A stretch of 63,368 nt of DNA, filler included. It is 4 parts of 4 records of this genome, joined end to end, with 100 filler letters (N's around TTAATTAATTAA, not from the genome) between each part and the next. Parts side by side here need not be neighbours in the genome. Positions count along the whole stretch, not along the records: positions 16,275 to 40,327 come from SRR22947725_1766; 3 more parts are not named here. One strand, written 5' to 3'. This document shows positions 16,175-55,973 of this stretch, one piece after another. The position numbers and the translations under genes are program-made. Positions within the stretch are counted from its first letter, which is position 1; each line of letters starts with the position of its first letter. The notes under the pieces were generated by a model, which did not search any database, was not told where the DNA came from, and worked only from the letters and a program-made list of their open reading frames with translations.

Positions 16175-16274
16175 NNNNNNNNNNNNNNNNNNNNNNNNNN
16201 NNNNNNNNNNNNNNNNNNTTAATTAATTAANNNNNNNNNNNNNNNNNNNNNNNNNNNNNNNNNNNNNNNNNNNN
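16175..16274. other. Artificial contig linker (N44-TTAATTAATTAA-N44)
   Basis: Six-frame stop cassette flanked by Ns; GC content and gene architecture change across it. Confidence 0.98.
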
Positions 16275-22987: not shown

Positions 22988-24232
22988 TCACATCTTCAGG
23001 ACTGGGATTTCGTCCCAGCTGGTGGTATATCGGGGCGTCCTCATTTCCCGACGCATGCTCCATTTTTGTTTCACCCCTTGAGAACCGAGGAAAGCACAGG
23101 CTTGTCCGTATTGAGAGGCCACCTCCTCCAATGCATCCACGAATTCCTTTCTTCTTGGATTACCATGCTCCTCAAAAAGAAGGCCTTGCTGTGCCCCTTT
23201 CGGGATCAGGTCGATCAGTAAAACACCTGCTTTCTTATAGGCATATCCCTTACGATAAATTGAACGGAGCAGGGACTTGGCATTTTTCACTACCCGGATC
23301 AAATCGTCGGTGGGTTCATCAAAAGCGAGCGTCCGGGCATTGGAATATTGTTCCTGGTCTTCGCGAAAACGATTGGTTTTTATAAAAACCTGCAGGGCGG
23401 AGGCAAGGGATCCTTCCGAGCGGATCTTACGGGTCGCTTTAACTGCGTAGTTCGCCACCGCCTCCTCTAATTCGGACAGGCTTTCAACCGGCCGGCCAAA
23501 GGAGCGGGAAGAACAGGTGTTTTTACGGGGCTGGGGAACCTGCTCCATTTCCAGGCAGGGAATTCCCGAGAGTTCCCGTTGAGTACGCTCCAGGGTGACT
23601 CCTCCAATGGATCGAATCATCGAAGAAGGAGCCCGGGCAAAGCGGAGGGCGTTAGTTAAGCCGACCCGTTGCAAACGAATACTCAACCTAGGTCCCACCC
23701 CCCAGATATCCTCGACCGGAATACCGCTGAGTACCTCATCCTGCCCGGCCGACACCTCAAAACAACCGGTCTTTTTTTTCTTAGCCAGACGGTTGGCTAA
23801 TTTTGCCAATGTCTTGGTGTTTCCAAGCCCAATTGAAATCGGTATACCCGTCCAACGGCCCACCGTTTTACGAATACGCTGACTCAAAAGCAGTGGGGAT
23901 TTAACTCCGCTCAGGTTTAAAAACGATTCATCAATCGAATAAACTTCCATATCCGGGGCAAACCGGGCCAGTACCGAAGTGACCCGTCTGGACATATCGC
24001 CATACAATTCATAATTCGATGAAAATACCGTCACTCCATTCCACTCGCAGAGTTTTTTAATTTGGTGATAAGGAGCGCCCATAGGAATACCGAGGGCTTT
24101 GGCCTCATTGGAACGGGCGACCGCACAGCCGTCATTATTGGAAAGTACAATTACCGGTCTATTTCGTAATGCGGGACGGAAGACGCGTTCGCAGGAAACA
24201 TAAAAATTATTACAATCCGCCAGAGCAATCAT
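22988..24232 (-). CDS. umuC: Y-family DNA polymerase V catalytic subunit
   Basis: DCNNFYVSCER, SNNDGC and YSIDE motifs; C-terminal W.MRRE.RTPRYTT.W. Confidence 0.95.
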   Translation of the reverse strand: MIALADCNNFYVSCERVFRPALRNRPVIVLSNNDGCAVARSNEAKALGIPMGAPYHQIKKLCEWNGVTVFSSNYELYGDMSRRVTSVLARFAPDMEVYSIDESFLNLSGVKSPLLLSQRIRKTVGRWTGIPISIGLGNTKTLAKLANRLAKKKKTGCFEVSAGQDEVLSGIPVEDIWGVGPRLSIRLQRVGLTNALRFARAPSSMIRSIGGVTLERTQRELSGIPCLEMEQVPQPRKNTCSSRSFGRPVESLSELEEAVANYAVKATRKIRSEGSLASALQVFIKTNRFREDQEQYSNARTLAFDEPTDDLIRVVKNAKSLLRSIYRKGYAYKKAGVLLIDLIPKGAQQGLLFEEHGNPRRKEFVDALEEVASQYGQACAFLGSQGVKQKWSMRREMRTPRYTTSWDEIPVLKM

Positions 24233-24744
24233 AAGGAATGAATCACACTAGTGACCACTCCCCATAAATGCGTATCATCTTCTTCCTTCAACAAAATCGG
24301 TTGGAATTTTGAATTTTCAGGCATGAGCCAGGATTGTCCCTTGTCCTTCCGAAAACGCTTCACGGTAAGCTCGCCATTCAATGCCACAATCACAACCTTG
24401 CCATCTTTTGCCTGGGCACTACGGTCCACCACCAGGAGATCTCCGTCATGAATCCCCGCACCGATCATCGATTCTCCATTTGCCCGCACGAAAAAAGTGG
24501 CACTGGGCTCCCGAATGAGGTGAGTATTTAAATCAAGTACTCCCTCCAAATAATCATCTGCAGGCGAGGGAAAACCCGCAGATACTCCACAGGCGTAAAG
24601 AGGCAACTGATTTTCCTTCTCTTTTACAAATCGTAAAATACGATCTACTTGGCTCACTGGTATACGAACCGGGCGAGTTTTCTCACCGTAATGGTTACTC
24701 CCTTTGGGACGACCTGCTCCTTCTCTTTTTCCACCTCTTGTCAT
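24229..24744 (-). CDS. umuD: UmuD with N-terminal extension (UmuDAb-like)
   Basis: AGFPSPA cleavage region, GESM (Ser) and TVKR (Lys) S24 peptidase; N-terminal RGGKREGAGRPKG...TRPVRIP; 4-nt overlap with umuC. Confidence 0.92.
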   Translation of the reverse strand: MTRGGKREGAGRPKGSNHYGEKTRPVRIPVSQVDRILRFVKEKENQLPLYACGVSAGFPSPADDYLEGVLDLNTHLIREPSATFFVRANGESMIGAGIHDGDLLVVDRSAQAKDGKVVIVALNGELTVKRFRKDKGQSWLMPENSKFQPILLKEEDDTHLWGVVTSVIHSL

Positions 24745-24748
24745 ACCT

Positions 24749-24771
24749 TTGAAATATGTTACATTTTTCAA
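24749..24771. promoter_or_regulatory. 23-bp palindromic operator upstream of umuD
   Basis: TTGAAATATGTTACATTTTTCAA is a near-perfect inverted repeat 4 bp from the umuD ATG. Confidence 0.7.
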
Positions 24772-24831
24772 AAAGGCAAGGGAGGATCTTAAAAATGTGA
24801 TCCTTATTTCTTTTCCATTCGATATACAAGT

Positions 24832-25548
24832 GTGGATTCATTAAGCAAATCAAATTCTTTTACTCACCTCGTTGTAGGTGGATCACGCGGGATCGGTCGA
24901 TCCCTGGTAGACCAATCCATACAAGCTGGTCAATCGCTCTCAGTTCTGTCTCGTACCCCTCCAGTGGAACAATCTTCTGGTTGTACTTGGATCACAGGAG
25001 ATGCTGCAAAACCGGAGGAGTTTACAGATCAGTTACCTGAAAAAATAAATGCTCTCACCTTTTGTCCAGGCAAGGTCATTTTAGGCCCGATCAGACGATT
25101 GAAAGCGGAGCAAATGCTTGAAGCCTACCAAACCAGTGTATTGGATGCATTTACATTGGTGCAGGCATTACTTCCCCGTCTCGATGGATCGGTTGTCTTT
25201 ATCTCCTCAGTCGCAGCCACTACTGGCTTGCCGAGCCATTGTGCTATTTCCGCAGCTAAATCGGGACTGGAAGGATTTGCTTTAGCTCTTTCTGCCGATT
25301 TAGCACCCAAGGTCCGAGTGAATGTGGTCGCACCAACCTTGACTCCAACCGAAATGGGTTTAGGAATGGTCGGCGGAGATAAAATGATTCCTTTAATAGA
25401 AAATAAACATCCTTTAAAAATAATTCCCGCAGTGGAGGAAATTGCCGGTACTATTTCTTTCCTGCATTCCGATGCCGCAAGGTCAATTACTGGACAGGTC
25501 CTCAAGGTAGATAGCGGACTGTCCAAGCTTCGTCTCAATGATCGCTGA
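24832..25548 (+). CDS. Atypical short-chain dehydrogenase/reductase
   Basis: GGSRGIG, VRVNVVAP and ITGQVL.VD.G motifs; catalytic YxxxK reads ISAAK; overlaps the photolyase start. Confidence 0.85.
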   Translation: MDSLSKSNSFTHLVVGGSRGIGRSLVDQSIQAGQSLSVLSRTPPVEQSSGCTWITGDAAKPEEFTDQLPEKINALTFCPGKVILGPIRRLKAEQMLEAYQTSVLDAFTLVQALLPRLDGSVVFISSVAATTGLPSHCAISAAKSGLEGFALALSADLAPKVRVNVVAPTLTPTEMGLGMVGGDKMIPLIENKHPLKIIPAVEEIAGTISFLHSDAARSITGQVLKVDSGLSKLRLNDR

Positions 25549-26995
25549 CCCATCCCCGCCCACTAGTGGACGGGCGATTGTTTGGTTTCGGAAAGATTTA
25601 CGCCTACAAGATAATCCCTGCCTCGAAGCCGCACTACAATCGGGCAAGGAAATCATTCCAGTTTACATTTGGAATCAAGAAGAAGGCGGACAATGGAGCC
25701 CGGGTGCTGCTGCTCGTTGGTGGCTTCACCACGCACTGGCAAGCCTAGGTAAAGATATTCAACACCTTGGCGGTTCTCTCCTCCTGCAAAAAGGATCGGC
25801 GGAGGAAATCCTACCCCGCTTAGCGGATGACTTGGGTGCGGAAACCCTCTATTTTGGAAGGACCTATGATCCCGCTGGCCTCGCTACTGAGAAAGCAGTG
25901 GAACTTGCATTTTCGAACCGGAATGCCACCGTTGAATCGTTTAACAGCAGCCTTCTGCAGGAACCTTGGGAAATCAAAAATGGATCGGGGCGACCCTTTC
26001 AAGTTTTCACCCCTTATTGGCGGAAATCCAGGGCCGGTATTTACAAGGAACCGCTTAATTATTCCCTGGATAGTCTACCTTTTCTTTCCCCGCAATCTCC
26101 CGGGCTGAGTATCGACGAGTTAGAATTACTGCCCGATCATAGCTGGCATTTAAAACTATCCGAACACTGGGATGTTTCCGAGGATGCTGCCCACAAGCTT
26201 ATCACGCGAACGGCAGATGTAATTACCCGTTCCTATGCCACTGCCCGAAACATTCCCTCGGTGGATGGAACATCTCGATTGTCTCCCTACCTTGCCTGGG
26301 GATTAGTCAGTCCAAGACAGATCTGCCAAGCCGTGTTAACCGCAGATAATGATTGTGGACATCGCGGTGAAAACAAGTACCTCGTCGAGATTGGCTGGCG
26401 TGAGTTTTCCTATCAATTACTCTATCATTTCCCACACATCCCGGACCAACCACTTCGGGAAAAATATTCCACCTTTCCTTGGCTCGATGATAACCAATCA
26501 TTACGGGCCTGGCAGTTTGGAAATACTGGATACCCGATGGTAGATGCGGGAATGAGACAACTTTATGAGACCGGATGGATGCACAATCGGGTACGCATGG
26601 TGGTCGCTTCATTCCTCGTAAAACACCTCCTTATTTCATGGCAGGAGGGAGCACGCTGGTTTTGGGATACACTCGTGGATGCCGATCTCGCAAGTAACAC
26701 GCAGGGCTGGCAATGGGCCGCGGGTTGCGGAGCGGATGCAGCTCCCTACTTCCGGATTTTCAACCCGATTACACAGGGAGAAAAATTTGACGGAAAAGGT
26801 GAATATGCCCGTAAATGGATCCCCAGCCTAAAGGAACTACCCGGAAAATGGGTATTTAAGCCCTGGGAAGCCCCGCCCGATCTCTTGCTGGTAAGCGATG
26901 TCTTTTTGGGCACTAACTACCCCCACCCCTGTGTGGATCATAAAGAAGGTCGGGCCCGGGCTCTTGCCGCACTCGCTTCAATCAAAGAATCGTAA
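25538..26995 (+). CDS. phr: CPD DNA photolyase (class III-like)
   Basis: WFRKDLRLQDNP, GAAARWWLHH, TSRLSPYL, GWMHNRVRM and GWQWAAGCGADAAPYFRIFNP motifs. Confidence 0.93.
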   Translation: MIADPSPPTSGRAIVWFRKDLRLQDNPCLEAALQSGKEIIPVYIWNQEEGGQWSPGAAARWWLHHALASLGKDIQHLGGSLLLQKGSAEEILPRLADDLGAETLYFGRTYDPAGLATEKAVELAFSNRNATVESFNSSLLQEPWEIKNGSGRPFQVFTPYWRKSRAGIYKEPLNYSLDSLPFLSPQSPGLSIDELELLPDHSWHLKLSEHWDVSEDAAHKLITRTADVITRSYATARNIPSVDGTSRLSPYLAWGLVSPRQICQAVLTADNDCGHRGENKYLVEIGWREFSYQLLYHFPHIPDQPLREKYSTFPWLDDNQSLRAWQFGNTGYPMVDAGMRQLYETGWMHNRVRMVVASFLVKHLLISWQEGARWFWDTLVDADLASNTQGWQWAAGCGADAAPYFRIFNPITQGEKFDGKGEYARKWIPSLKELPGKWVFKPWEAPPDLLLVSDVFLGTNYPHPCVDHKEGRARALAALASIKES

Positions 26996-27082
26996 CCTGA
27001 AAATGTTTCGGACGGAACTTTTTCAACCATCGAATTCCCGCACCATGGTATCGGCTTTATTTCTCCTCTCTACTCAGTACAA

Positions 27083-28648
27083 ATGAAAACCTCTATTGTT
27101 TGGTTCCGAAAATCTCTACGCCTGCATGACAACCCCGCCTTAATGGCCGCGTGCGAAAATGAACAGGTCGACTCTATTATACCACTCTACATCATTGACC
27201 CCGATATATTCGGTGGGAAATTTGAGAATTGGAGCCCCAACCGATTGCGGTTTTTAATCGAAAGTCTGTCTGATCTAGACAAACAACTTTCCACCCGATA
27301 CGGGAGTCAGTTAGTACTGATTGAAGGCAAAGCAGAGGATGTATTTGAAAACCTCGAAGGCCTGTTGGGGGAATCTTTTAATTCCCTCTATTGTGAATAT
27401 TCCTCCGATCCATGGGAACGAAAAAAATTCTCCGTGATCCAAAAAACACTCTCGGAAAAAAATCAAGCCATTCAGCTTCAATCCATTGATTCTTTTCACA
27501 CGATTTTGGATGTGGAAAAAGTAATTTCCTCACCCCATTTCCGAAACCCGAAATCAATGAAGGACATCGATCGGGTATTTGCTTCCCATTTTGATAAAAA
27601 CGAGTATGGCTTTTACAAAATCGACGACCCCATTCCTGAACCTGAAAAGAGTAAACCCTTTCCTCAGATTTCCGGGATCCAACCGTTATCAATTGAAGAC
27701 CTAACTGCTCAGATTTCCCGAGAGGTAAAAACAGATATCATGTCTGTAAAATCATATTTCCAGGGGGGAGAAACTGAGGCACTCTCCCGATTAAAAAAGA
27801 AAGTTTCAGGACAGGTTGAATATGTAAATACATTTAAAAAACCTAAAACCATGTCGACCAATACCACTGGTGAACCGATGGAACCCAGTACCACTGGACT
27901 GTCTCCGTATCTAAGTGTGGGTTGTTTATCAGTTCGTAAATTATGGAAGGAGTGTGAAAAATGCCAACTTCAGGGACCCCATTCACAACCTCCCGAATCC
28001 CTTCACGGCCAACTAATGTTCAGGGAGATGTTCTATCTTCTTTCTAGGACTGTGGATCATTGGGACCACGATCAATCCAATGAGATGTGTAAAGAGATAG
28101 AATGGGGGGAGTACGATCAGGAAAAAATGGAGGCCTGGGAAAAAGGACAAACCGGCTTTCCTTTAATCGATGCGATGATGAGACAACTCGAGGCCACCGG
28201 TTGGATGCACCACCTTGCCAGGCATGCAGTTTCGTGCTTTCTGACCCGTGGACAACTTTGGCAAAACTGGAAATACGGAAGGGATGTATTTGACCGAAAA
28301 CTTCTGGACAGCGACTGGGCATTAAACAATGGAAATTGGTTATGGCTATCTGGGGTTGCCCCTTTTTCTATGCCCTATTTCAGGCTCTATAATCCCTGCC
28401 CAGATGCGAAATCAAGCCTCAATGTGGAAGCACAGACCGCTGAGTTCATTAAATTCTGGGTCCCGGAACTGAAGGATTTCCCTCCCCGGTATATCTATGA
28501 ACCACACTTAGCATCTGAATCAATCCAATCCGATTCCAACTGTATTATAGGCAAGGATTATCCAAGCCCGATCGTGGATAGAAAAGAGAGTGCCAAGGAA
28601 AACCTTGCCAAATTTAAAAATAGTCTCTCCCGCTTAAAATCGGCCTAA
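27083..28648 (+). CDS. Eukaryote-type (6-4) photolyase / animal-like cryptochrome
   Basis: WFRKSLRLHDNPAL, STTGLSPYL, PPESLHGQL, GWMHHLARHAVSCFLTRG and DSDWALNNGNWLWLS motifs. Confidence 0.88.
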   Translation: MKTSIVWFRKSLRLHDNPALMAACENEQVDSIIPLYIIDPDIFGGKFENWSPNRLRFLIESLSDLDKQLSTRYGSQLVLIEGKAEDVFENLEGLLGESFNSLYCEYSSDPWERKKFSVIQKTLSEKNQAIQLQSIDSFHTILDVEKVISSPHFRNPKSMKDIDRVFASHFDKNEYGFYKIDDPIPEPEKSKPFPQISGIQPLSIEDLTAQISREVKTDIMSVKSYFQGGETEALSRLKKKVSGQVEYVNTFKKPKTMSTNTTGEPMEPSTTGLSPYLSVGCLSVRKLWKECEKCQLQGPHSQPPESLHGQLMFREMFYLLSRTVDHWDHDQSNEMCKEIEWGEYDQEKMEAWEKGQTGFPLIDAMMRQLEATGWMHHLARHAVSCFLTRGQLWQNWKYGRDVFDRKLLDSDWALNNGNWLWLSGVAPFSMPYFRLYNPCPDAKSSLNVEAQTAEFIKFWVPELKDFPPRYIYEPHLASESIQSDSNCIIGKDYPSPIVDRKESAKENLAKFKNSLSRLKSA

Positions 28649-28684
28649 GAATAGACCCCAAAAATTGCCTTTACTGATTTCTTT

Positions 28685-30343
28685 TTAGAAAAGTAATAGG
28701 TTACCTTCCCGATCCACTTTGGTACCATCCGCCAATTTTGTTTCCCCGGTCATTCCAGTAAATCCGCGAATTGTCTCCAATGTATCCGCCTCCTCCATTT
28801 TCTTATCGGTGCGCCAACGCTTAATTCGGGGAAAACGCAAAGCCACTCCTGACTTATGACGACCAGAAGAACGGGCCCCTTCAAAAGCGATCTCAAAAAC
28901 CATGCTTGGTTTAACGGAACGAACCGGCCCAAATTTCCCGGTAATATTTTTGCGGACGAATCGGTCGACTTTTTCAATTTCGCTGTCACTTAATCCGGAG
29001 TACGCTTTTGCAACCGTGACCAATTCCCCCTGTTCATTCCAAACTGCAAGGGAATAATCGGAATATAAATTCGAGCGTTTCCCATGTCCAAGTTGAGCAC
29101 TGACCACCACCATATCGGCGAGGTATGGATCGATCTTCCACTTATACCAGGATCCTTTCACCCGGCCGGATTCGTAGGAAGAATTCTTTTTCTTCAGCAT
29201 AAATCCCTCCACTCCACGAGCCCGGGATTCTTGACGAAGCTTCGCCAAATTTGTCCAAGATTCTCCCTCCACCAGCGGAGACAATCCAATGGGAAAATCA
29301 GCCGGGAGCGACGAGAGTGTAATCTCCAACTTCTTTCTTCTTTCTTCCATGGGAAGTGATCTTAGGTCGGACCCTTCCATGCGTAAAATATCATATGCCT
29401 GAAATCTGACCGGTTCCCGCCTGAGAATGGTGGGACCCGGATCCTTTCTTCCCAGTCTGGTCTGAAGACGTGAAAAGGATCGCATTCCCTCCTGGCCCCA
29501 GGCCAGGATTTCTCCATCCAGACAGAGGTCACCGGGAAGCCACTTGCCGGCATCCATTACTTCAGGAAATGAATGACCCACGGATTCATCTCCCCTCGAC
29601 CAAATCATACAAGTACCCCCACGATTAATCAATTGAGCCCGAATCCCGTCCCATTTCCATTCCATTTGCCAATCCTTCACACTGCCCAGTTTCTCGACTT
29701 CTTCCTGCAGTGGATTTGCGAGACAGAACGGAAAAGGTTGGCATACTCGATCCTCATCGACCCCGGGGTTAAGAATACCCTCCATGCGTAAGGTTTTGGG
29801 TGACCAATTTCCGGCCAGTCGCTGGGCAATAATCGCAGGCTGCACTCCGCCCACCCGGGCAAGTGCCTTGCACAGATTTCCTTTAGATACTCCCATCCGA
29901 AATCCCCCGGTGAGCAATTTGTGAAAGGGCAAAAAATCCTTTTCACCCAAAAAGTCCCAGGCTGCAAAAATATTTTCTCTTCTTTGCTCTATTTCCATGC
30001 CGACCATCGGTTCAATAAATTTCCCGATCAGTTCAGCTAAGCCCACCTTTCCCCTCCCCTCGCCCTGGCTGGCAATGAGCAGGGAAATTGTCTCCGCCAG
30101 ATCCCCCACCCGGTCATGGCATTCCTCCAGCAACCATTGCGGAAGCCCACTCCGTTCGGAAGCAAATGTACGGAGCTCCGAAGTTTTGATTGCTCCCTTA
30201 ATTCGGTTGCCCGCGAGGAACCAGCAGACCCAAATAGAATCTTTCGGATCCGCATCGGTTAAGTATTGTACTAAATGGTCGAGTCGATCATTCGTTTTTG
30301 TCGCCTCATCGAGGTCGTGAAAAAGCTGGGAAAACTCCTTCAA
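28685..30343 (-). CDS. ATP-dependent DNA ligase
   Basis: EWKWDGIR adenylation motif, LDGE, EGFMLK, WYKWK and LRFPR. Confidence 0.93.
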   Translation of the reverse strand: MKEFSQLFHDLDEATKTNDRLDHLVQYLTDADPKDSIWVCWFLAGNRIKGAIKTSELRTFASERSGLPQWLLEECHDRVGDLAETISLLIASQGEGRGKVGLAELIGKFIEPMVGMEIEQRRENIFAAWDFLGEKDFLPFHKLLTGGFRMGVSKGNLCKALARVGGVQPAIIAQRLAGNWSPKTLRMEGILNPGVDEDRVCQPFPFCLANPLQEEVEKLGSVKDWQMEWKWDGIRAQLINRGGTCMIWSRGDESVGHSFPEVMDAGKWLPGDLCLDGEILAWGQEGMRSFSRLQTRLGRKDPGPTILRREPVRFQAYDILRMEGSDLRSLPMEERRKKLEITLSSLPADFPIGLSPLVEGESWTNLAKLRQESRARGVEGFMLKKKNSSYESGRVKGSWYKWKIDPYLADMVVVSAQLGHGKRSNLYSDYSLAVWNEQGELVTVAKAYSGLSDSEIEKVDRFVRKNITGKFGPVRSVKPSMVFEIAFEGARSSGRHKSGVALRFPRIKRWRTDKKMEEADTLETIRGFTGMTGETKLADGTKVDREGNLLLF

Positions 30344-31344
30344 TCCAATTCCTCCTCTCGAAAACTGGATTCGTTTAAAACCGAGGCATTGATTCCCTTC
30401 TCTCCCAGAAATCGGCTCAGTGCATCTCCATTCCCATGTGTCAATTTAACCACCTCCGCTCCGGTCCCAGTAATCACATCAATCAGACCAGGCCAATCTG
30501 CATGATCAGAAAGAACAAATCCACGATCAATATTTTTTCTTCTGCGGGGTCCCCGTATTGCCATCCATCCCGATGCAAAACCACGCTTTACCCCACGAAA
30601 TTTCTTCATCCAACTACTATCCTCCACTGCAGGGGGTGCAATGACCATCCCATTAGCAATCACTGTGTCTTTCTCTATTTTTTTAATTGCGGGTAAGGAA
30701 ATCCCCGCATTTTGATAATGTTCGAGGAAGGGATGAACTGCGGAATGGGCATATATTAGTCCAATCGAAGGATCAAGGCCTGCTACTATCCGTTGTGCCT
30801 TTCCTAAAGAGTAAGCAAATACAAGCGAACCCTGTCCAGAATCCTTATTGTGCTTCCACCATCGATTAATTTGGTCGTAAATTTCCTCCTCCGGTTGCCA
30901 ACGGTAAACCGGCAGCCCAAAAGTACACTCCGAAATAAAGCCATGGCAGCTTACGAGCTCGAACGGTTCACAAGTTCGATCCGCCTGTGGTTTGTAATCT
31001 CCACTGACCACCCACACTCTACCACGAACCTCAATTCTGATCTGTGAAGAACCTAAAATATGACCCGCGGGATGAAAAGAAACAATTGCGTCTTGAATTG
31101 TTTGCTTTGTTCCAAAGGGTATTGATTCAATTTTATTTTTTTGCCCGACCCGAATTTGCAACAACGGCCGGCACGAATCCGAACAAAGATAATTTTCATG
31201 CCCCGACCGCGCGTGGTCACTGTGGGCATGAGTAATGAGTGCCCGCTTTACTTGCCCGCGCGGATCAACGTAAAAGTCTCCCGCCGGGCAATAGAGGCCT
31301 TCTTTTTTTAGAATTAAAATTTGATTGTCTCTACTGTTACTCAA
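30340..31344 (-). CDS. Ligase-associated DNA damage response exonuclease (MBL/beta-CASP fold)
   Basis: THAHSDH, AGHILGS, SGDYK, ECTFGLP and LSDHADW motifs; overlaps the ligase start. Confidence 0.9.
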   Translation of the reverse strand: MSNSRDNQILILKKEGLYCPAGDFYVDPRGQVKRALITHAHSDHARSGHENYLCSDSCRPLLQIRVGQKNKIESIPFGTKQTIQDAIVSFHPAGHILGSSQIRIEVRGRVWVVSGDYKPQADRTCEPFELVSCHGFISECTFGLPVYRWQPEEEIYDQINRWWKHNKDSGQGSLVFAYSLGKAQRIVAGLDPSIGLIYAHSAVHPFLEHYQNAGISLPAIKKIEKDTVIANGMVIAPPAVEDSSWMKKFRGVKRGFASGWMAIRGPRRRKNIDRGFVLSDHADWPGLIDVITGTGAEVVKLTHGNGDALSRFLGEKGINASVLNESSFREEELD

Positions 31345-31458
31345 TGAGTATTCAATTGATTCCTAAATAGGAAAAAGGACAAACTTTTTAAAAAAGTGGC
31401 CGAAGGAAAAGGCAATTTCAACCGATTTCTTTGCTTCACAGTACTCATTATTCAAAAA

Positions 31459-31481
31459 TTGAAATAAAAATGAACTTTCAA
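31459..31481. promoter_or_regulatory. Second TTGAAA-N11-TTTCAA box in the divergent exonuclease/sigma intergenic region
   Basis: TTGAAATAAAAATGAACTTTCAA has the same arms and spacing as the umuD box. Confidence 0.45.
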
Positions 31482-31519
31482 TGATCCTTCCCGCGACCCG
31501 GATCGTTTTATTTATCATA

Positions 31520-32464
31520 ATGGTTACTCCACATGTTACAAGATCTCAAGGAAGCGATACTCCTGACCCAGTGGGCAGGTTTATTTCCGATCGTTCACGC
31601 ATGGCACCTCCTTCCAAGGAAGAGTGCGACAAACTTTTTCTGGAAATGTCAAAAGGCTCAGACGAAGCCAGAAAAGAATTAATTGAACGACATATCCGAC
31701 TAGTCGCTTCCATTGCACTCAAGTTCCGCCAGACAAATGTTCAAATGGAAGACATCATGGCCGAGGGCATACAGGGCTTGGTGGTTGCATTGGATAAATT
31801 TGACTACACCAGGGGGATAAAATTAAGCACATATGCAGCATGGTGGATTCGGCAAAGAATTCAGCGCCTCATTGGTAAAATGTCAGGTGCCGTTGCCGTT
31901 CCTCACGATGTTTCCCAAGGAAAGAGAAAAGAAGGTCAAATTCGTTCGTCATTGCAAGTCGATCTGGGTCGTCTGCCTACTGACGACGAAGTCAACGATG
32001 CATTGGGACAGGATAGAAACCTTACCAAACGAGTTAAATTTGCGCCCACCAGCTCCCTCTCGATGGATGAGCCTCTGAGTGAGGATTCCGACAGTACTTT
32101 GGCCGACTTGATGACTGCGGAAGAAGAACTCAAACAATCCTATCGCGAGGATGGTTCACTCTCCGATGATATTGGTGTTGCATTGTCTTTTCTCGATCAA
32201 CGAGAAAGAAAAGTATTAAGCATGCGTTTCGGTATGGAAAAAGGAGAATCAATGAAATTGGATGATATTGCTGATTCGATGAATGTATCTGGTGAGCGCG
32301 TCCGACAGCTCGAATCTCTCGGTTTGAGAAAATTACGGGCAGTCCTCCTGCAAAATGGAAAAATTGACTTTCGAAAATTAGATCAACTGGTCAGTACAGA
32401 TTTACGTGGCAAAACGAAGATGAGTCCTTTAGAACTTTCCCTCGTTTTAGATCCAGCCACATAA
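31520..32464 (+). CDS. Alternative sigma-70 factor (RpoS/RpoH-like size, no region 1.1)
   Basis: Region 2 EGIQGLVVALDKFD..RG.KLSTYAAWWIRQ and region 4 SGERVRQLE. The start could be 31481. Confidence 0.9.
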   Translation: MVTPHVTRSQGSDTPDPVGRFISDRSRMAPPSKEECDKLFLEMSKGSDEARKELIERHIRLVASIALKFRQTNVQMEDIMAEGIQGLVVALDKFDYTRGIKLSTYAAWWIRQRIQRLIGKMSGAVAVPHDVSQGKRKEGQIRSSLQVDLGRLPTDDEVNDALGQDRNLTKRVKFAPTSSLSMDEPLSEDSDSTLADLMTAEEELKQSYREDGSLSDDIGVALSFLDQRERKVLSMRFGMEKGESMKLDDIADSMNVSGERVRQLESLGLRKLRAVLLQNGKIDFRKLDQLVSTDLRGKTKMSPLELSLVLDPAT

Positions 32465-32465
32465 A

Positions 32466-33386
32466 ATGTCTTTTTCCTTATCAAAATGGGTGTGTCCACC
32501 CCCAGAAACTTTTAATGAACCACTTGGTTCAGGCGGACGCGTGGAATGGTTTAGGTGCTTACCGTATGTTCTCATTCACCTGATTACAGTACTTGCCTTT
32601 TTTTATCCGGTTACAATAAGTTGCCTTGTCGTAGCATTGGTCTCATACAGCTTACGTATGTTTTCAATTACCGCATTTTATCACCGTTATTTTTCGCATC
32701 GTAGTTTCAAGACTTCCAGACTTGTTCAATTTATTGGTGCGTTCGTTGCCTGTAGTTCGGGCCAAAGGGGTCCACTGTGGTGGGCCGCACATCACCGAAG
32801 GCACCACAAACATTCCGATACCGAAGAAGATGTTCACTCCCCTCACACGAAGAGTTTTTTTTGGAGTCATACCCTTTGGTTCATGACCGACTATGCAGTG
32901 CCCACTTTTCTTAAAGAAATCCCGGATTGGTTAAAATTCAAAGAACTTCGGTTTTTAAACCGCTTTGATTGGATACCACTCGTTTTACTCGGATTTGCCT
33001 GTTACTACGCACCCGAAATTACTTGGTTTGCAGAGCTTACCGGACTCTCTAATATGCAGATGTTATTATGGGGATTTTTTGTCCCCACAATCGTTCTTTA
33101 TCATGCTACATTTGCAGTAAACTCAATTACTCACATGTTTGGAAAAAGGCGGTTTAATACCAAAGATGAAAGCCGAAACAATTGGATTGTTGCCATCTTT
33201 GCATTCGGAGAAGGCTGGCACAATAATCACCACTTCTTTCCGGGATCTGCGAGGCAAGGATTTTTCAAAGGAGAATTCGATCTTACTTACTACGGTTTAA
33301 AATTTCTTTCTTTCTTTGGCCTGGTTCGCGACCTCCGGCCGGTTCCGGGTTGGGTGAAACAAAAAGCAATCGATTCCTCTTCCTAA
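32466..33386 (+). CDS. Membrane acyl-CoA/acyl-lipid desaturase (delta-9-like)
   Basis: His boxes HRYFSH, HRRHH and HNNHH. Confidence 0.92.
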   Translation: MSFSLSKWVCPPPETFNEPLGSGGRVEWFRCLPYVLIHLITVLAFFYPVTISCLVVALVSYSLRMFSITAFYHRYFSHRSFKTSRLVQFIGAFVACSSGQRGPLWWAAHHRRHHKHSDTEEDVHSPHTKSFFWSHTLWFMTDYAVPTFLKEIPDWLKFKELRFLNRFDWIPLVLLGFACYYAPEITWFAELTGLSNMQMLLWGFFVPTIVLYHATFAVNSITHMFGKRRFNTKDESRNNWIVAIFAFGEGWHNNHHFFPGSARQGFFKGEFDLTYYGLKFLSFFGLVRDLRPVPGWVKQKAIDSSS

Positions 33387-40327: not shown

Positions 40328-40427
40328 NNNNNNNNNNNNNNNNNNNNNNNNNNNNNNNNNNNNNNNNNNNNTTAATTAATTAANNNNNNNNNNNNNNNNN
40401 NNNNNNNNNNNNNNNNNNNNNNNNNNN
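40328..40427. other. Artificial contig linker
   Basis: N-run + TTAATTAATTAA + N-run. Confidence 0.98.
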
Positions 40428-55873: not shown

Positions 55874-55973
55874 NNNNNNNNNNNNNNNNNNNNNNNNNNN
55901 NNNNNNNNNNNNNNNNNTTAATTAATTAANNNNNNNNNNNNNNNNNNNNNNNNNNNNNNNNNNNNNNNNNNNN
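55874..55973. other. Artificial contig linker
   Basis: N-run + TTAATTAATTAA + N-run. Confidence 0.98.

Follow-up and report, generated by a model that had tools for sequence, protein, structure and literature searches.

In the accessible text of Xu et al. 2021 (PMC8476157) and of the 2022 SePhrB paper (PMC9178010), one cryptochrome/photolyase family (CPF) class is named 'eukaryotic 6-4 photolyases' and is contrasted with the prokaryotic FeS-BCPs, to which the (6-4) photolyases PhrB of Agrobacterium and SePhrB of Synechococcus belong (PMC9178010). Prokaryotic homologues of the eukaryotic (6-4) photolyase/animal cryptochrome class (Eu64) are already in print. In the accessible text of Miles et al. 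2020 (PMC7560933), two Gloeobacter proteins fall into the (6-4)/animal cryptochrome (CRY) group, and Lucas-Lledo and Lynch 2009 are cited for a transfer from green algae to Gloeobacter; that of Deppisch et al. 2022 (PMC9498864) reports the 6-4 photolyase for 'several bacteria' as well as for a 'Euryarchaeota archaeon' and takes the enzyme as ancient in all domains. Rinke et al. 2018 mention a Marine Group II (MGII) 'photolyase (phrB)' with patchwork horizontal gene transfer, and its class is not assigned in the accessible text (PMC6461757). Here, we describe a 63,368-nt stretch of DNA (the window) that carries an Eu64 gene at positions 27083–28648, adjacent to a bacterial cyclobutane pyrimidine dimer (CPD) photolyase gene. 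The gene product belongs to a new prokaryotic branch, rich in members, of an enzyme class that is already known, and its predicted chemistry is known as well. It is probably a functional (6-4) photolyase that came from a marine alveolate and was later passed between Bacteria and Archaea.

The window protein resembles the Drosophila melanogaster (Dm) (6-4) photolyase (3CVU, 7AZT) and Arabidopsis UVR3 (3FY4) in family, fold, His pair, Trp tetrad and the residue equivalent to Asn403, but differs from the Dm enzyme in sequence (∼36% identity), in a Phe in place of W302, in an extra residue before R421/Y423 and in a longer interdomain linker. Its best match in both sequence and fold is the animal-like cryptochrome (aCRY) of Chlamydomonas (5ZM0, 6FN0); the 6FN0 entry is a complex with (6-4) DNA. 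aCRY has a C-terminal extension and uses a Tyr as the terminal electron donor, whereas the window protein stops at the photolyase homology region (PHR) domain and has a Trp at the terminal-donor site. The alveolate (6-4) photolyases, named as such in database annotations, include those of Amoebophrya sp. A120/A25 (P0382, P0397), Crypthecodinium cohnii (P0342) and Symbiodiniaceae ('UVR3'; P0391, P0392). They belong to the same Eu64 subclade (support 99/96), are ∼46–50% identical to the window protein and have in common with it the Phe-for-Trp replacement in QL.FREM and the GVAP.S.P insertion; 'FSMP' is found in both the window protein and Amoebophrya. Unlike the window protein, the alveolate proteins contain 525–620 residues, often with C-terminal tails, and the fourth-Trp site is Tyr in the Amoebophrya rows but Trp in prokaryotes. 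The FeS-BCPs have their presumed (6-4) substrate and prokaryotic hosts in common with the window protein (PMC9178010, accessible text) but form another CPF class, whose members contain an Fe-S cluster and a 6,7-dimethyl-8-ribityllumazine (DMRL) or 8-hydroxydeazaflavin (8-HDF) antenna. The accessible text of the two papers on prokaryotic Eu64 proteins (PMC7560933, PMC9498864) describes no marine Opitutales/MGII/MGIII clade, alveolate affinity or operon, although the 'Euryarchaeota archaeon' entry may belong to the marine clade. No literature on the marine clade or its alveolate affinity was found, with subscription journals and supplements outside reach. The preliminary description of the window, made from its letters, had left newness open; the marine clade appears to be new, but prokaryotic homologues of the class are not (PMC9498864, PMC7560933).

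Overall structure and class of the protein

The gene is an exact, intronless open reading frame, as first described, and contains the following features.

27083–28648, + strand: Eu64-type (6-4) photolyase gene; ATG start, 521 residues, no internal stop, no C-terminal extension
27092–27559, + strand: N-terminal α/β (antenna-binding) domain; PF00875 DNA_photolyase, residues 4–159, 2.3e-27
28007–28618, + strand: flavin adenine dinucleotide (FAD)-binding helical domain; PF03441 FAD_binding_7, residues 309–512, 3.6e-65, 219.6 bits
28010–28027, + strand: QLMFRE; F313 in place of the Trp (Dm W302) of QLLWRE
28103–28339, + strand: Trp tetrad W341, W393, W396 and W419 plus N415, from the 7azt alignment
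28199–28252, + strand: HHLARH-site motif GWMHHLARHAVSCFLTRG, residues 373–390; H377/H381 align with Dm His365/His369 (7azt)
28352–28396, + strand: GVAPFSMPYFRLYNP loop; one-residue insertion, with R434 and Y436 aligned to Dm R421 and Y423

The protein belongs to the Eu64 class. Its best phmmer match in the PDB is Chlamydomonas aCRY (1.9e-98, 333 bits), and the Arabidopsis (6-4) photolyase (9e-93), Drosophila (6-4) photolyase (5e-92) and mouse CRY2 (9e-92) also match strongly. Other classes score far lower (E. coli CPD photolyase, 1.8e-43; Cry-DASH, 1e-41; at most 152 bits). None of the NCBIfam bacterial photolyase/DASH models reaches its cut-off for the 521-residue protein (PRK10674, 197.7 against 506 bits; crypto_DASH, 197.4 against 317; crypt_chrom_pln, 150.6 against 604), and a Pfam scan of the protein gave no match to the FeS-BCP domain PF04244. 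The sub-cut-off scores and the HH..RH active site place the protein outside CPD classes I and III and Cry-DASH, and the lack of PF04244 places it outside the FeS-BCPs.

The two-domain PHR architecture of the Eu64 class is evident from the Pfam domains and from superposition of an AlphaFold2 (AF2) model. The model, built from an 87-row alignment (A2), has a predicted local distance difference test (pLDDT) score of 96.4 and a predicted template modelling score (pTM) of 0.94. In Foldseek comparisons, it matches aCRY (6fn2) with template modelling (TM) scores of 0.87/0.92, the Dm (6-4) photolyase with a T-T(6-4) lesion (3cvu) with 0.88/0.91 and the Arabidopsis (6-4) photolyase (3fy4) with 0.87/0.87. 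A C-terminal extension of the signalling type is absent: the alignment with the aCRY PHR reaches residue 517 of 521, and the last helix of the model (residues 500–520) is the end of the PHR. An earlier model from a shallow 19-row alignment (A1) was dropped, with a mean pLDDT of 70.8 and values below 50 in the core of the FAD domain (residues 373–452).

Active site and tryptophan chain

Residues were mapped through an HMMER alignment to 7azt, whose numbering runs one below the canonical Dm numbering. The canonical numbers of the Dm Trp tetrad and Asn403 follow the accessible text of PMC9008703, and the numbering was verified with the Trp numbers given there and with the PDB titles of 3cvw ('H365N') and 3cvx ('H369M'). 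The active site of the window protein reads H376-H377-L-A-R-H381, and the three His residues are found in 12 of 12 prokaryotic rows, in contrast to H-N...M/L in the outgroups. W419, W396, W341 and W393 correspond to Dm Trp407, Trp384, Trp330 and Trp381, respectively, and N415 corresponds to Asn403. The tetrad and N415 are kept in all 12 prokaryotic rows; W341, W396, W419 and N415 are invariant across alignment A2. K253, Q310, W421, R434 and Y436 align with Dm K246, Q299, W409, R421 and Y423, whose roles are presumably those given in the 2008 Dm (6-4) structure paper. F313 is the sole departure among the catalytic positions checked, the 13 others being conserved in 12 of 12 prokaryotic rows, and most catalytic positions are also invariant in the 19-sequence alignment A1.

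All motifs quoted in the preliminary description are present in the translation (GWMHHLARHAVSCFLTRG, FKKPKT, STTGLSPYL, PPESLHGQL, DSDWALNNGNWLWLS, QLMFRE and GVAPFSMPYFRLYNP), and the Trp candidates proposed there, EIEW (W341), LWQNW (W393 and W396) and GNW (W419), coincide with the tetrad. The motif agreement with Eu64 is far beyond chance.

The two divergent motifs have a restricted distribution. The Dm W302 site is Phe in 12/12 prokaryotic and 18/18 alveolate-group rows but Trp in all 19 other Eu64 rows and all six outgroups. The one-residue loop insertion (GVAP.S.P versus SASAFF) is common to the same 30 rows, and the 'SMP' of the loop is restricted to the prokaryotes, three Amoebophrya-type rows (P0382, P0397 and P0353) and P0123. 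QLMFRE and GVAPFSMPYFR, first taken to suggest an old lineage, are not signs of an old bacterial one but derived characters in common with alveolate (dinoflagellate/Syndiniales) (6-4) photolyases, of which they are signatures.

A separate variation is seen at the Dm W409 site, which is Ala, Gly or Ser in nine alveolate-group rows (P0385, P0391, P0392, P0357, P0386, P0395, P0362, P0350 and P0127). The Trp is kept by the prokaryotes, the Amoebophrya-type rows and the Crypthecodinium/Durusdinium-A group. As judged from the aligned residues, the replacement may reflect functional divergence among dinoflagellate paralogues.

Phylogenetic position

Tree representatives were taken from clusters at 50% identity and were named where possible (fish cry5 and CRY1, Cafeteria, Thecamonas, Phakopsora, Porphyridium and the MMETSP transcript P0122). 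A search with P0122 retrieved proteins of Durusdinium, Crypthecodinium ('6-4 photolyase'), Cladocopium, Symbiodinium ('UVR3'), Effrenium, Polarella and Amoebophrya; these dinoflagellate/Syndiniales proteins lie on contigs of up to 3.9 Mb. Two overview trees, a 98-row FastTree and a 63-row quick tree, have conflicting backbones, with the prokaryotes near Cafeteria/Thecamonas in one and near the Eu64 base in the other, and were used solely for row choice.

The careful tree (IQ-TREE, LG+C20+F+G4 with posterior mean site frequencies (PMSF); 52 rows, 516 columns) contains 46 Eu64 rows and six outgroups of the HN..M/L type, including the window phr. Three unlabelled metagenomic rows were excluded, and class II, FeS-BCP and Gloeobacter proteins lie outside its sampling. 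Support is given as ultrafast bootstrap/SH-aLRT. The Eu64 clade is set apart from the outgroup with 100/100, and within it an alveolate-plus-prokaryote half is supported by 99/96. Moving inward from that half, the node left after the Symbiodiniaceae UVR3 group has split off is supported by 99/98 and the node left after the MMETSP0468 group by 95/82. Once Crypthecodinium/Durusdinium-A has also split off, the Amoebophrya group and the prokaryotes remain together (99/97). The prokaryotic clade itself (100/100) is sister to the Amoebophrya group. The PDB ranking, the 100/100 clade, the fold match and the catalytic and Trp residues together bear out the original assignment to the Eu64/animal cryptochrome clade.

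Approximately unbiased (AU) tests were applied to trees in which alveolate rows were held together without the prokaryotes. Holding all 18 alveolate rows together costs 51.6 lnL units (p = 0.0019), and holding the 15 eukaryote-sourced rows together costs 34.5 (p = 0.026). These tests favour a eukaryote-to-prokaryote transfer and disfavour a bacterial sister lineage. Of the two origins offered in the preliminary description, the transfer is thus supported, and a bacterial sister of the whole clade is disfavoured by both the nested tree and the AU tests. The donor was most likely a dinoflagellate-like protist, from which the gene would have been acquired long ago.

In a 55-row quick tree, the unlabelled protein P0123 branches next to the prokaryotes as their direct sister (96). 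A low-GC metagenome contig (L093; 109–1924, 2612–4228) carries a serine hydroxymethyltransferase (SHMT) gene beside an uninterrupted (6-4) gene with 80% identity to P0123. The SHMT gene lies in three collinear, exon-like pieces (profile positions 1–47, 114–223 and 241–399).

Distribution in Bacteria and Archaea

A protein search returned 3779 matches; the best 120 are 53–94% identical, nearly all are metagenomic, and their names include 'Opitutales bacterium', 'Marine Group III euryarchaeote' and the JGI name 'cryptochrome'. Each GTDB species was surveyed in a single genome with patterns derived from alignment A1, which gave 177 pattern matches and 108 confirmed places. The locus counts below rest on 80 of the 108, comprising 27 bacterial and 52 archaeal loci and one unlabelled MGII record. 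The bacterial loci come from metagenome-assembled genomes (MAGs) and single-cell genomes of marine Opitutales/Opitutia/Puniceicoccaceae, plus one 'Micrococcales' MAG; the archaeal loci come from Poseidoniales (MGIIa/b) and Marine Group III (MGIII).

The genome nearest to the window is an 86%-complete MAG (G001), in which a copy of the gene, 99% identical, adjoins the same photolyase and which matches the GTDB record of Candidatus Seribacter sulfatis (L006). In the order around G001, sampled evenly, the gene (E ≤ 1e-120) was found in 10 of 301 genomes, all from the genus of the window (10 of its 11 genomes), and was not found in eight genomes of the other genera of the family or in 282 of other families. 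The distribution on the Verrucomicrobia side is thus confined, in the Opitutales sample, to one genus (10/11 versus 0/290 elsewhere). A sample of the order around a Thalassarchaeaceae genome (Poseidoniales) contained the gene in 41 of 301 genomes. Overall, one marine Opitutales genus has the gene as a fixed trait, and its occurrence in Poseidoniales (MGII) and MGIII is patchy.

No clade member was found in IMG/VR with clade-specific patterns: of 58 matches, three were confirmed, all of them giant-virus MAGs at 25–27% identity. The viral route that had been suggested as an alternative is therefore without a carrier in that database. A relatives search with P0124 for other prokaryotic Eu64 proteins named stramenopiles, a choanoflagellate and animals, and no prokaryote.

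One in-frame stop is present in 5 of 51 genome matches (TAG in G102, G403 and G506; TAA in G315 and G498), which may be pseudogenes or assembly errors. The copy in the 'Micrococcales' MAG (L059, 1–1539, on a 4.9-kb contig) hardly differs from its counterpart in a Poseidoniales single-cell genome (L038; branches 0.065 and 0.075), so the L059 contig is probably mis-binned.

Genomic context and assembly

The following elements surround the gene.

22988–24771, − strand: umuD-like (S24 peptidase) and umuC-like (Y-family polymerase) genes; Pfam IMS/IMS_C/DUF4113 and Peptidase_S24; divergent from SDR-phr
24832–25548, + strand: short-chain dehydrogenase/reductase (SDR); adh_short_C2, 1.3e-29; 3′ end overlaps the phr start by 11 nt
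25538–26995, + strand: class III CPD photolyase phr, directly upstream; PDB 4u63, 7.2e-134, then plant CRYs
26996–27082, + strand: 87-nt spacer between phr and the (6-4) gene; no terminator-like site on the + strand, scan counts near shuffled expectation
28685–30343, − strand: ATP-dependent DNA ligase of the LigC/'cisplatin damage response' type, convergent; NF006701, 637 bits (cut-off 543), and TIGR04120, 564 bits, above cut-off
30340–31344, − strand: ligase-associated DNA damage response exonuclease; TIGR04122, 437 bits (cut-off 325)

The neighbours named in the preliminary description, a bacterial phr upstream and an ATP-dependent ligase downstream, are both present, but phr is of class III and not class I. 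SDR is the probable first gene of an SDR-phr-(6-4) operon. The promoter and terminator scans gave counts close to chance (6 against 4.8 and 8 against 5.1 expected from shuffled sequence), and an Rfam scan of the whole window gave no match. A sigma-70 family gene lies 2.8 kb downstream of the (6-4) gene. The umuD-like protein has an N-terminal extension of ∼55 residues ahead of its S24 domain.

The arrangement is conserved among the bacterial loci. In 24 of 27, the gene next upstream is phr-like (66–100% identical to the window phr) and on the same strand; in the remaining three, the (6-4) gene begins within 220 nt of a contig end. Homologues of the SDR are found in 24 of the 27, of the ligase in 23, of the sigma factor in 22, of the exonuclease in 21, of umuC in 20 and of umuD in 17. 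The archaeal gene contexts differ from the bacterial block, with an SDR homologue in only 3 of 52 loci. Seven of the 52 archaeal loci (L028, L031, L033, L034, L043, L052 and L066) have a second CPF gene directly downstream (e.g. L034:7613–9142). Its product contains ∼510 residues, reaches no NCBIfam cut-off and shows only ∼25–30% identity to each of the two window photolyases.

A script scan and inspection of the sequence located three linkers in the window (16175–16274, 40328–40427 and 55874–55973), in each of which N runs surround 'ttaattaatta'; the window thus consists of four contigs joined end to end. GC content falls from 0.60 to ∼0.44 near 16.2 kb. The first contig (1–16174, GC 0.60, against ∼0.45 in the rest) has no match in the 86%-complete G001 and may be a foreign contig in the bin. 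The (6-4) gene is located on the second contig (16275–40327), ∼10.8 kb from its left end and 11.7 kb from its right end, and has a GC content of 0.437 and a third-position GC content (GC3) of 0.448, against 0.453 for 16276–63368. The mid-contig position and the neighbour-like base composition first reported for the gene are consistent with these values.

The stretch or part of it is contained in 19 listed public runs from 12 studies, all of them marine or aquatic metagenomes or metatranscriptomes, and 15 of these contain at least half of its words. Three contigs from public runs, of 8.9 kb (23694–32593), 6.3 kb (26954–33000) and 6.2 kb (26385–32593), each cross both gene junctions, and a fourth run bridges the junctions with separate contigs (26143–27574 and 27606–31209). 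The four runs belong to four different studies, and the phr|gene and gene|ligase junctions were therefore assembled independently, which excludes a chimera over the gene region. Single-cell genomes also contain the clade gene, as does an archaeal contig of 533 kb. Contigs from RNA libraries cover the (6-4) locus as well; contigs cannot show transcription.

Discussion

The likely function of the protein is the repair of (6-4) photoproducts. The features that point to this role are the intact, conserved pocket and Trp chain, the lack of a C-terminal extension, the tandem with phr in a DNA-damage block and the lack of a detected FeS-BCP in G001. The prokaryotic clade has kept the equivalents of K253, N418, R434 and H381, whereas CRY rows (fish CRY1, Nematostella cry2) have lost one or another of them. 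In a mechanism drawn from homology, FAD in the C-terminal helical domain would be photoreduced to FADH− via W419 > W396 > W341 > W393. The pyrimidine(6-4)pyrimidone lesion would be flipped into a pocket formed by K253, Q310, F313, H377, H381, W421, R434 and Y436, and FADH− excited by blue or near-UV light would give an electron to it. His377 and His381 (Dm His365 and His369) would handle proton transfer, after which the bases would be restored and the electron returned. One light-dependent operon of SDR, class III phr and the (6-4) gene, set within a conserved DNA-damage block (umuDC, LigC ligase and exonuclease), could then cover both major UV photoproducts. As for origin, a marine alveolate of the Syndiniales or dinoflagellate kind would have donated the gene to a marine prokaryote, and the gene would then have been exchanged between Bacteria and Archaea.

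An artefact in which a piece of eukaryotic DNA was wrongly assembled or binned into a bacterial contig, to which the four-contig make-up of the window, the unmatched first contig (GC 0.60) and the apparently mis-binned 'Micrococcales' copy might point, has next to no probability. It is already refuted by the junction contigs from four runs of four studies and by the gene order that recurs in 24 of 27 bacterial loci, single-cell genomes included; the gene also lies 10.8 kb inside its own contig and matches the neighbouring genes in GC and GC3. It is unlikely that the prokaryotic clade is ancient, either as the sister or source of Eu64 or as the source from which alveolates took the gene. The prokaryotes lie four nodes deep among alveolate paralogues encoded on megabase eukaryotic contigs, the AU tests reject alveolate monophyly without them, and their hosts are narrow and patchy (10/11 in one Opitutales genus and 0/290 elsewhere; 41/301 in the Poseidoniales order). 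An ancient or reverse origin would fit the 63-row quick tree, which puts the prokaryotes with P0122, P0123 and P0127 near the Eu64 base, the position of the alveolate-plus-prokaryote clade as one of the two basal halves of Eu64, and the fact that dinoflagellates have taken up bacterial genes. It also fits the accessible text of Deppisch et al., in which '6-4 in all three domains' is taken as ancient (PMC9498864).

As to function, a protein acting mainly as a blue-light sensor, an 'animal-like cryptochrome' or a dual CPF like aCRY that regulates, for example, the sigma factor or damage genes with repair secondary, is improbable. aCRY is indeed the best solved match (TM 0.87/0.92), a complete Trp tetrad supports long-lived radical pairs, and the sigma-70 gene 2.8 kb downstream is conserved in 22 of 27 bacterial loci. 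However, the 521 residues include no C-terminal extension of the aCRY or animal CRY signalling kind, the lesion-pocket residues that are partly lost in CRY rows are all retained, and the gene and that of a CPD photolyase form a fixed tandem within a block of repair genes. The archaeal copies occur in unrelated contexts, which argues against a conserved signalling partner. There is an equally small chance that the protein is a dual-function photoreceptor/photolyase like aCRY or diatom CPF1, delivered by a Syndiniales-like parasite lineage and exchanged between the domains in the sunlit ocean; if so, Bacteria and Archaea would have in it their first signalling module of the 'animal-like cryptochrome' kind.

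Several observations weigh against a functional (6-4) photolyase of alveolate origin. On the functional side, HHLARH and the Trp chain are also retained by light-independent animal CRYs, and aCRY, the closest solved protein, is bifunctional, so a sensory role is compatible with the sequence. F313, in place of Dm W302, lies in the predicted lesion pocket, and no assay of any prokaryotic clade member was found in the literature. The (6-4) gene is probably co-transcribed with SDR and class III phr, which is read from gene spacing only. FeS-BCP (PF04244) was not found in G001, an incomplete MAG (86%), although three control genomes were positive, and a search of the same incomplete MAG for the Fo synthase CofH gave nothing above cut-off; according to the accessible text of PMC9178010, Eu64 enzymes use an 8-HDF antenna. 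On the phylogenetic side, the p value of the second AU test is just 0.026, and the AU groups were named after the trees had been seen. Deviant amino-acid composition was flagged in 13 tree rows, including the prokaryotic ones, and a long stem (0.62) leads to the prokaryotes. Their clade begins in a polytomy of two Opitutales groups, MGIII and MGII, and either domain may have received the gene first.

G001 also encodes a third CPF protein of 501 residues on contig C97 (L088:1378–2880, − strand). It is neither Eu64, class III nor FeS-BCP, and its best PDB match is the Sulfolobus tokodaii protein 2e0i (2.6e-38).

Prokaryotic (6-4) repair is usually credited to the FeS-BCPs in the accessible text of earlier work (PMC8476157, PMC9178010), and the marine clade departs from that. 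It constitutes a coherent and conserved prokaryotic branch of a 'eukaryotic' class, carried by two groups that rank among the most abundant heterotrophs of the surface ocean. A marine alveolate donor would make the clade a rare and testable case of eukaryote-to-prokaryote transfer, followed by an exchange of light-dependent repair between bacteria and archaea, and would argue against taking '6-4 photolyase in all three domains' as a sign of an ancient origin. As compact proteins that are free of introns and extensions, the prokaryotic Eu64 members would be useful for the biophysics of (6-4) repair and of Trp-tetrad radical pairs.

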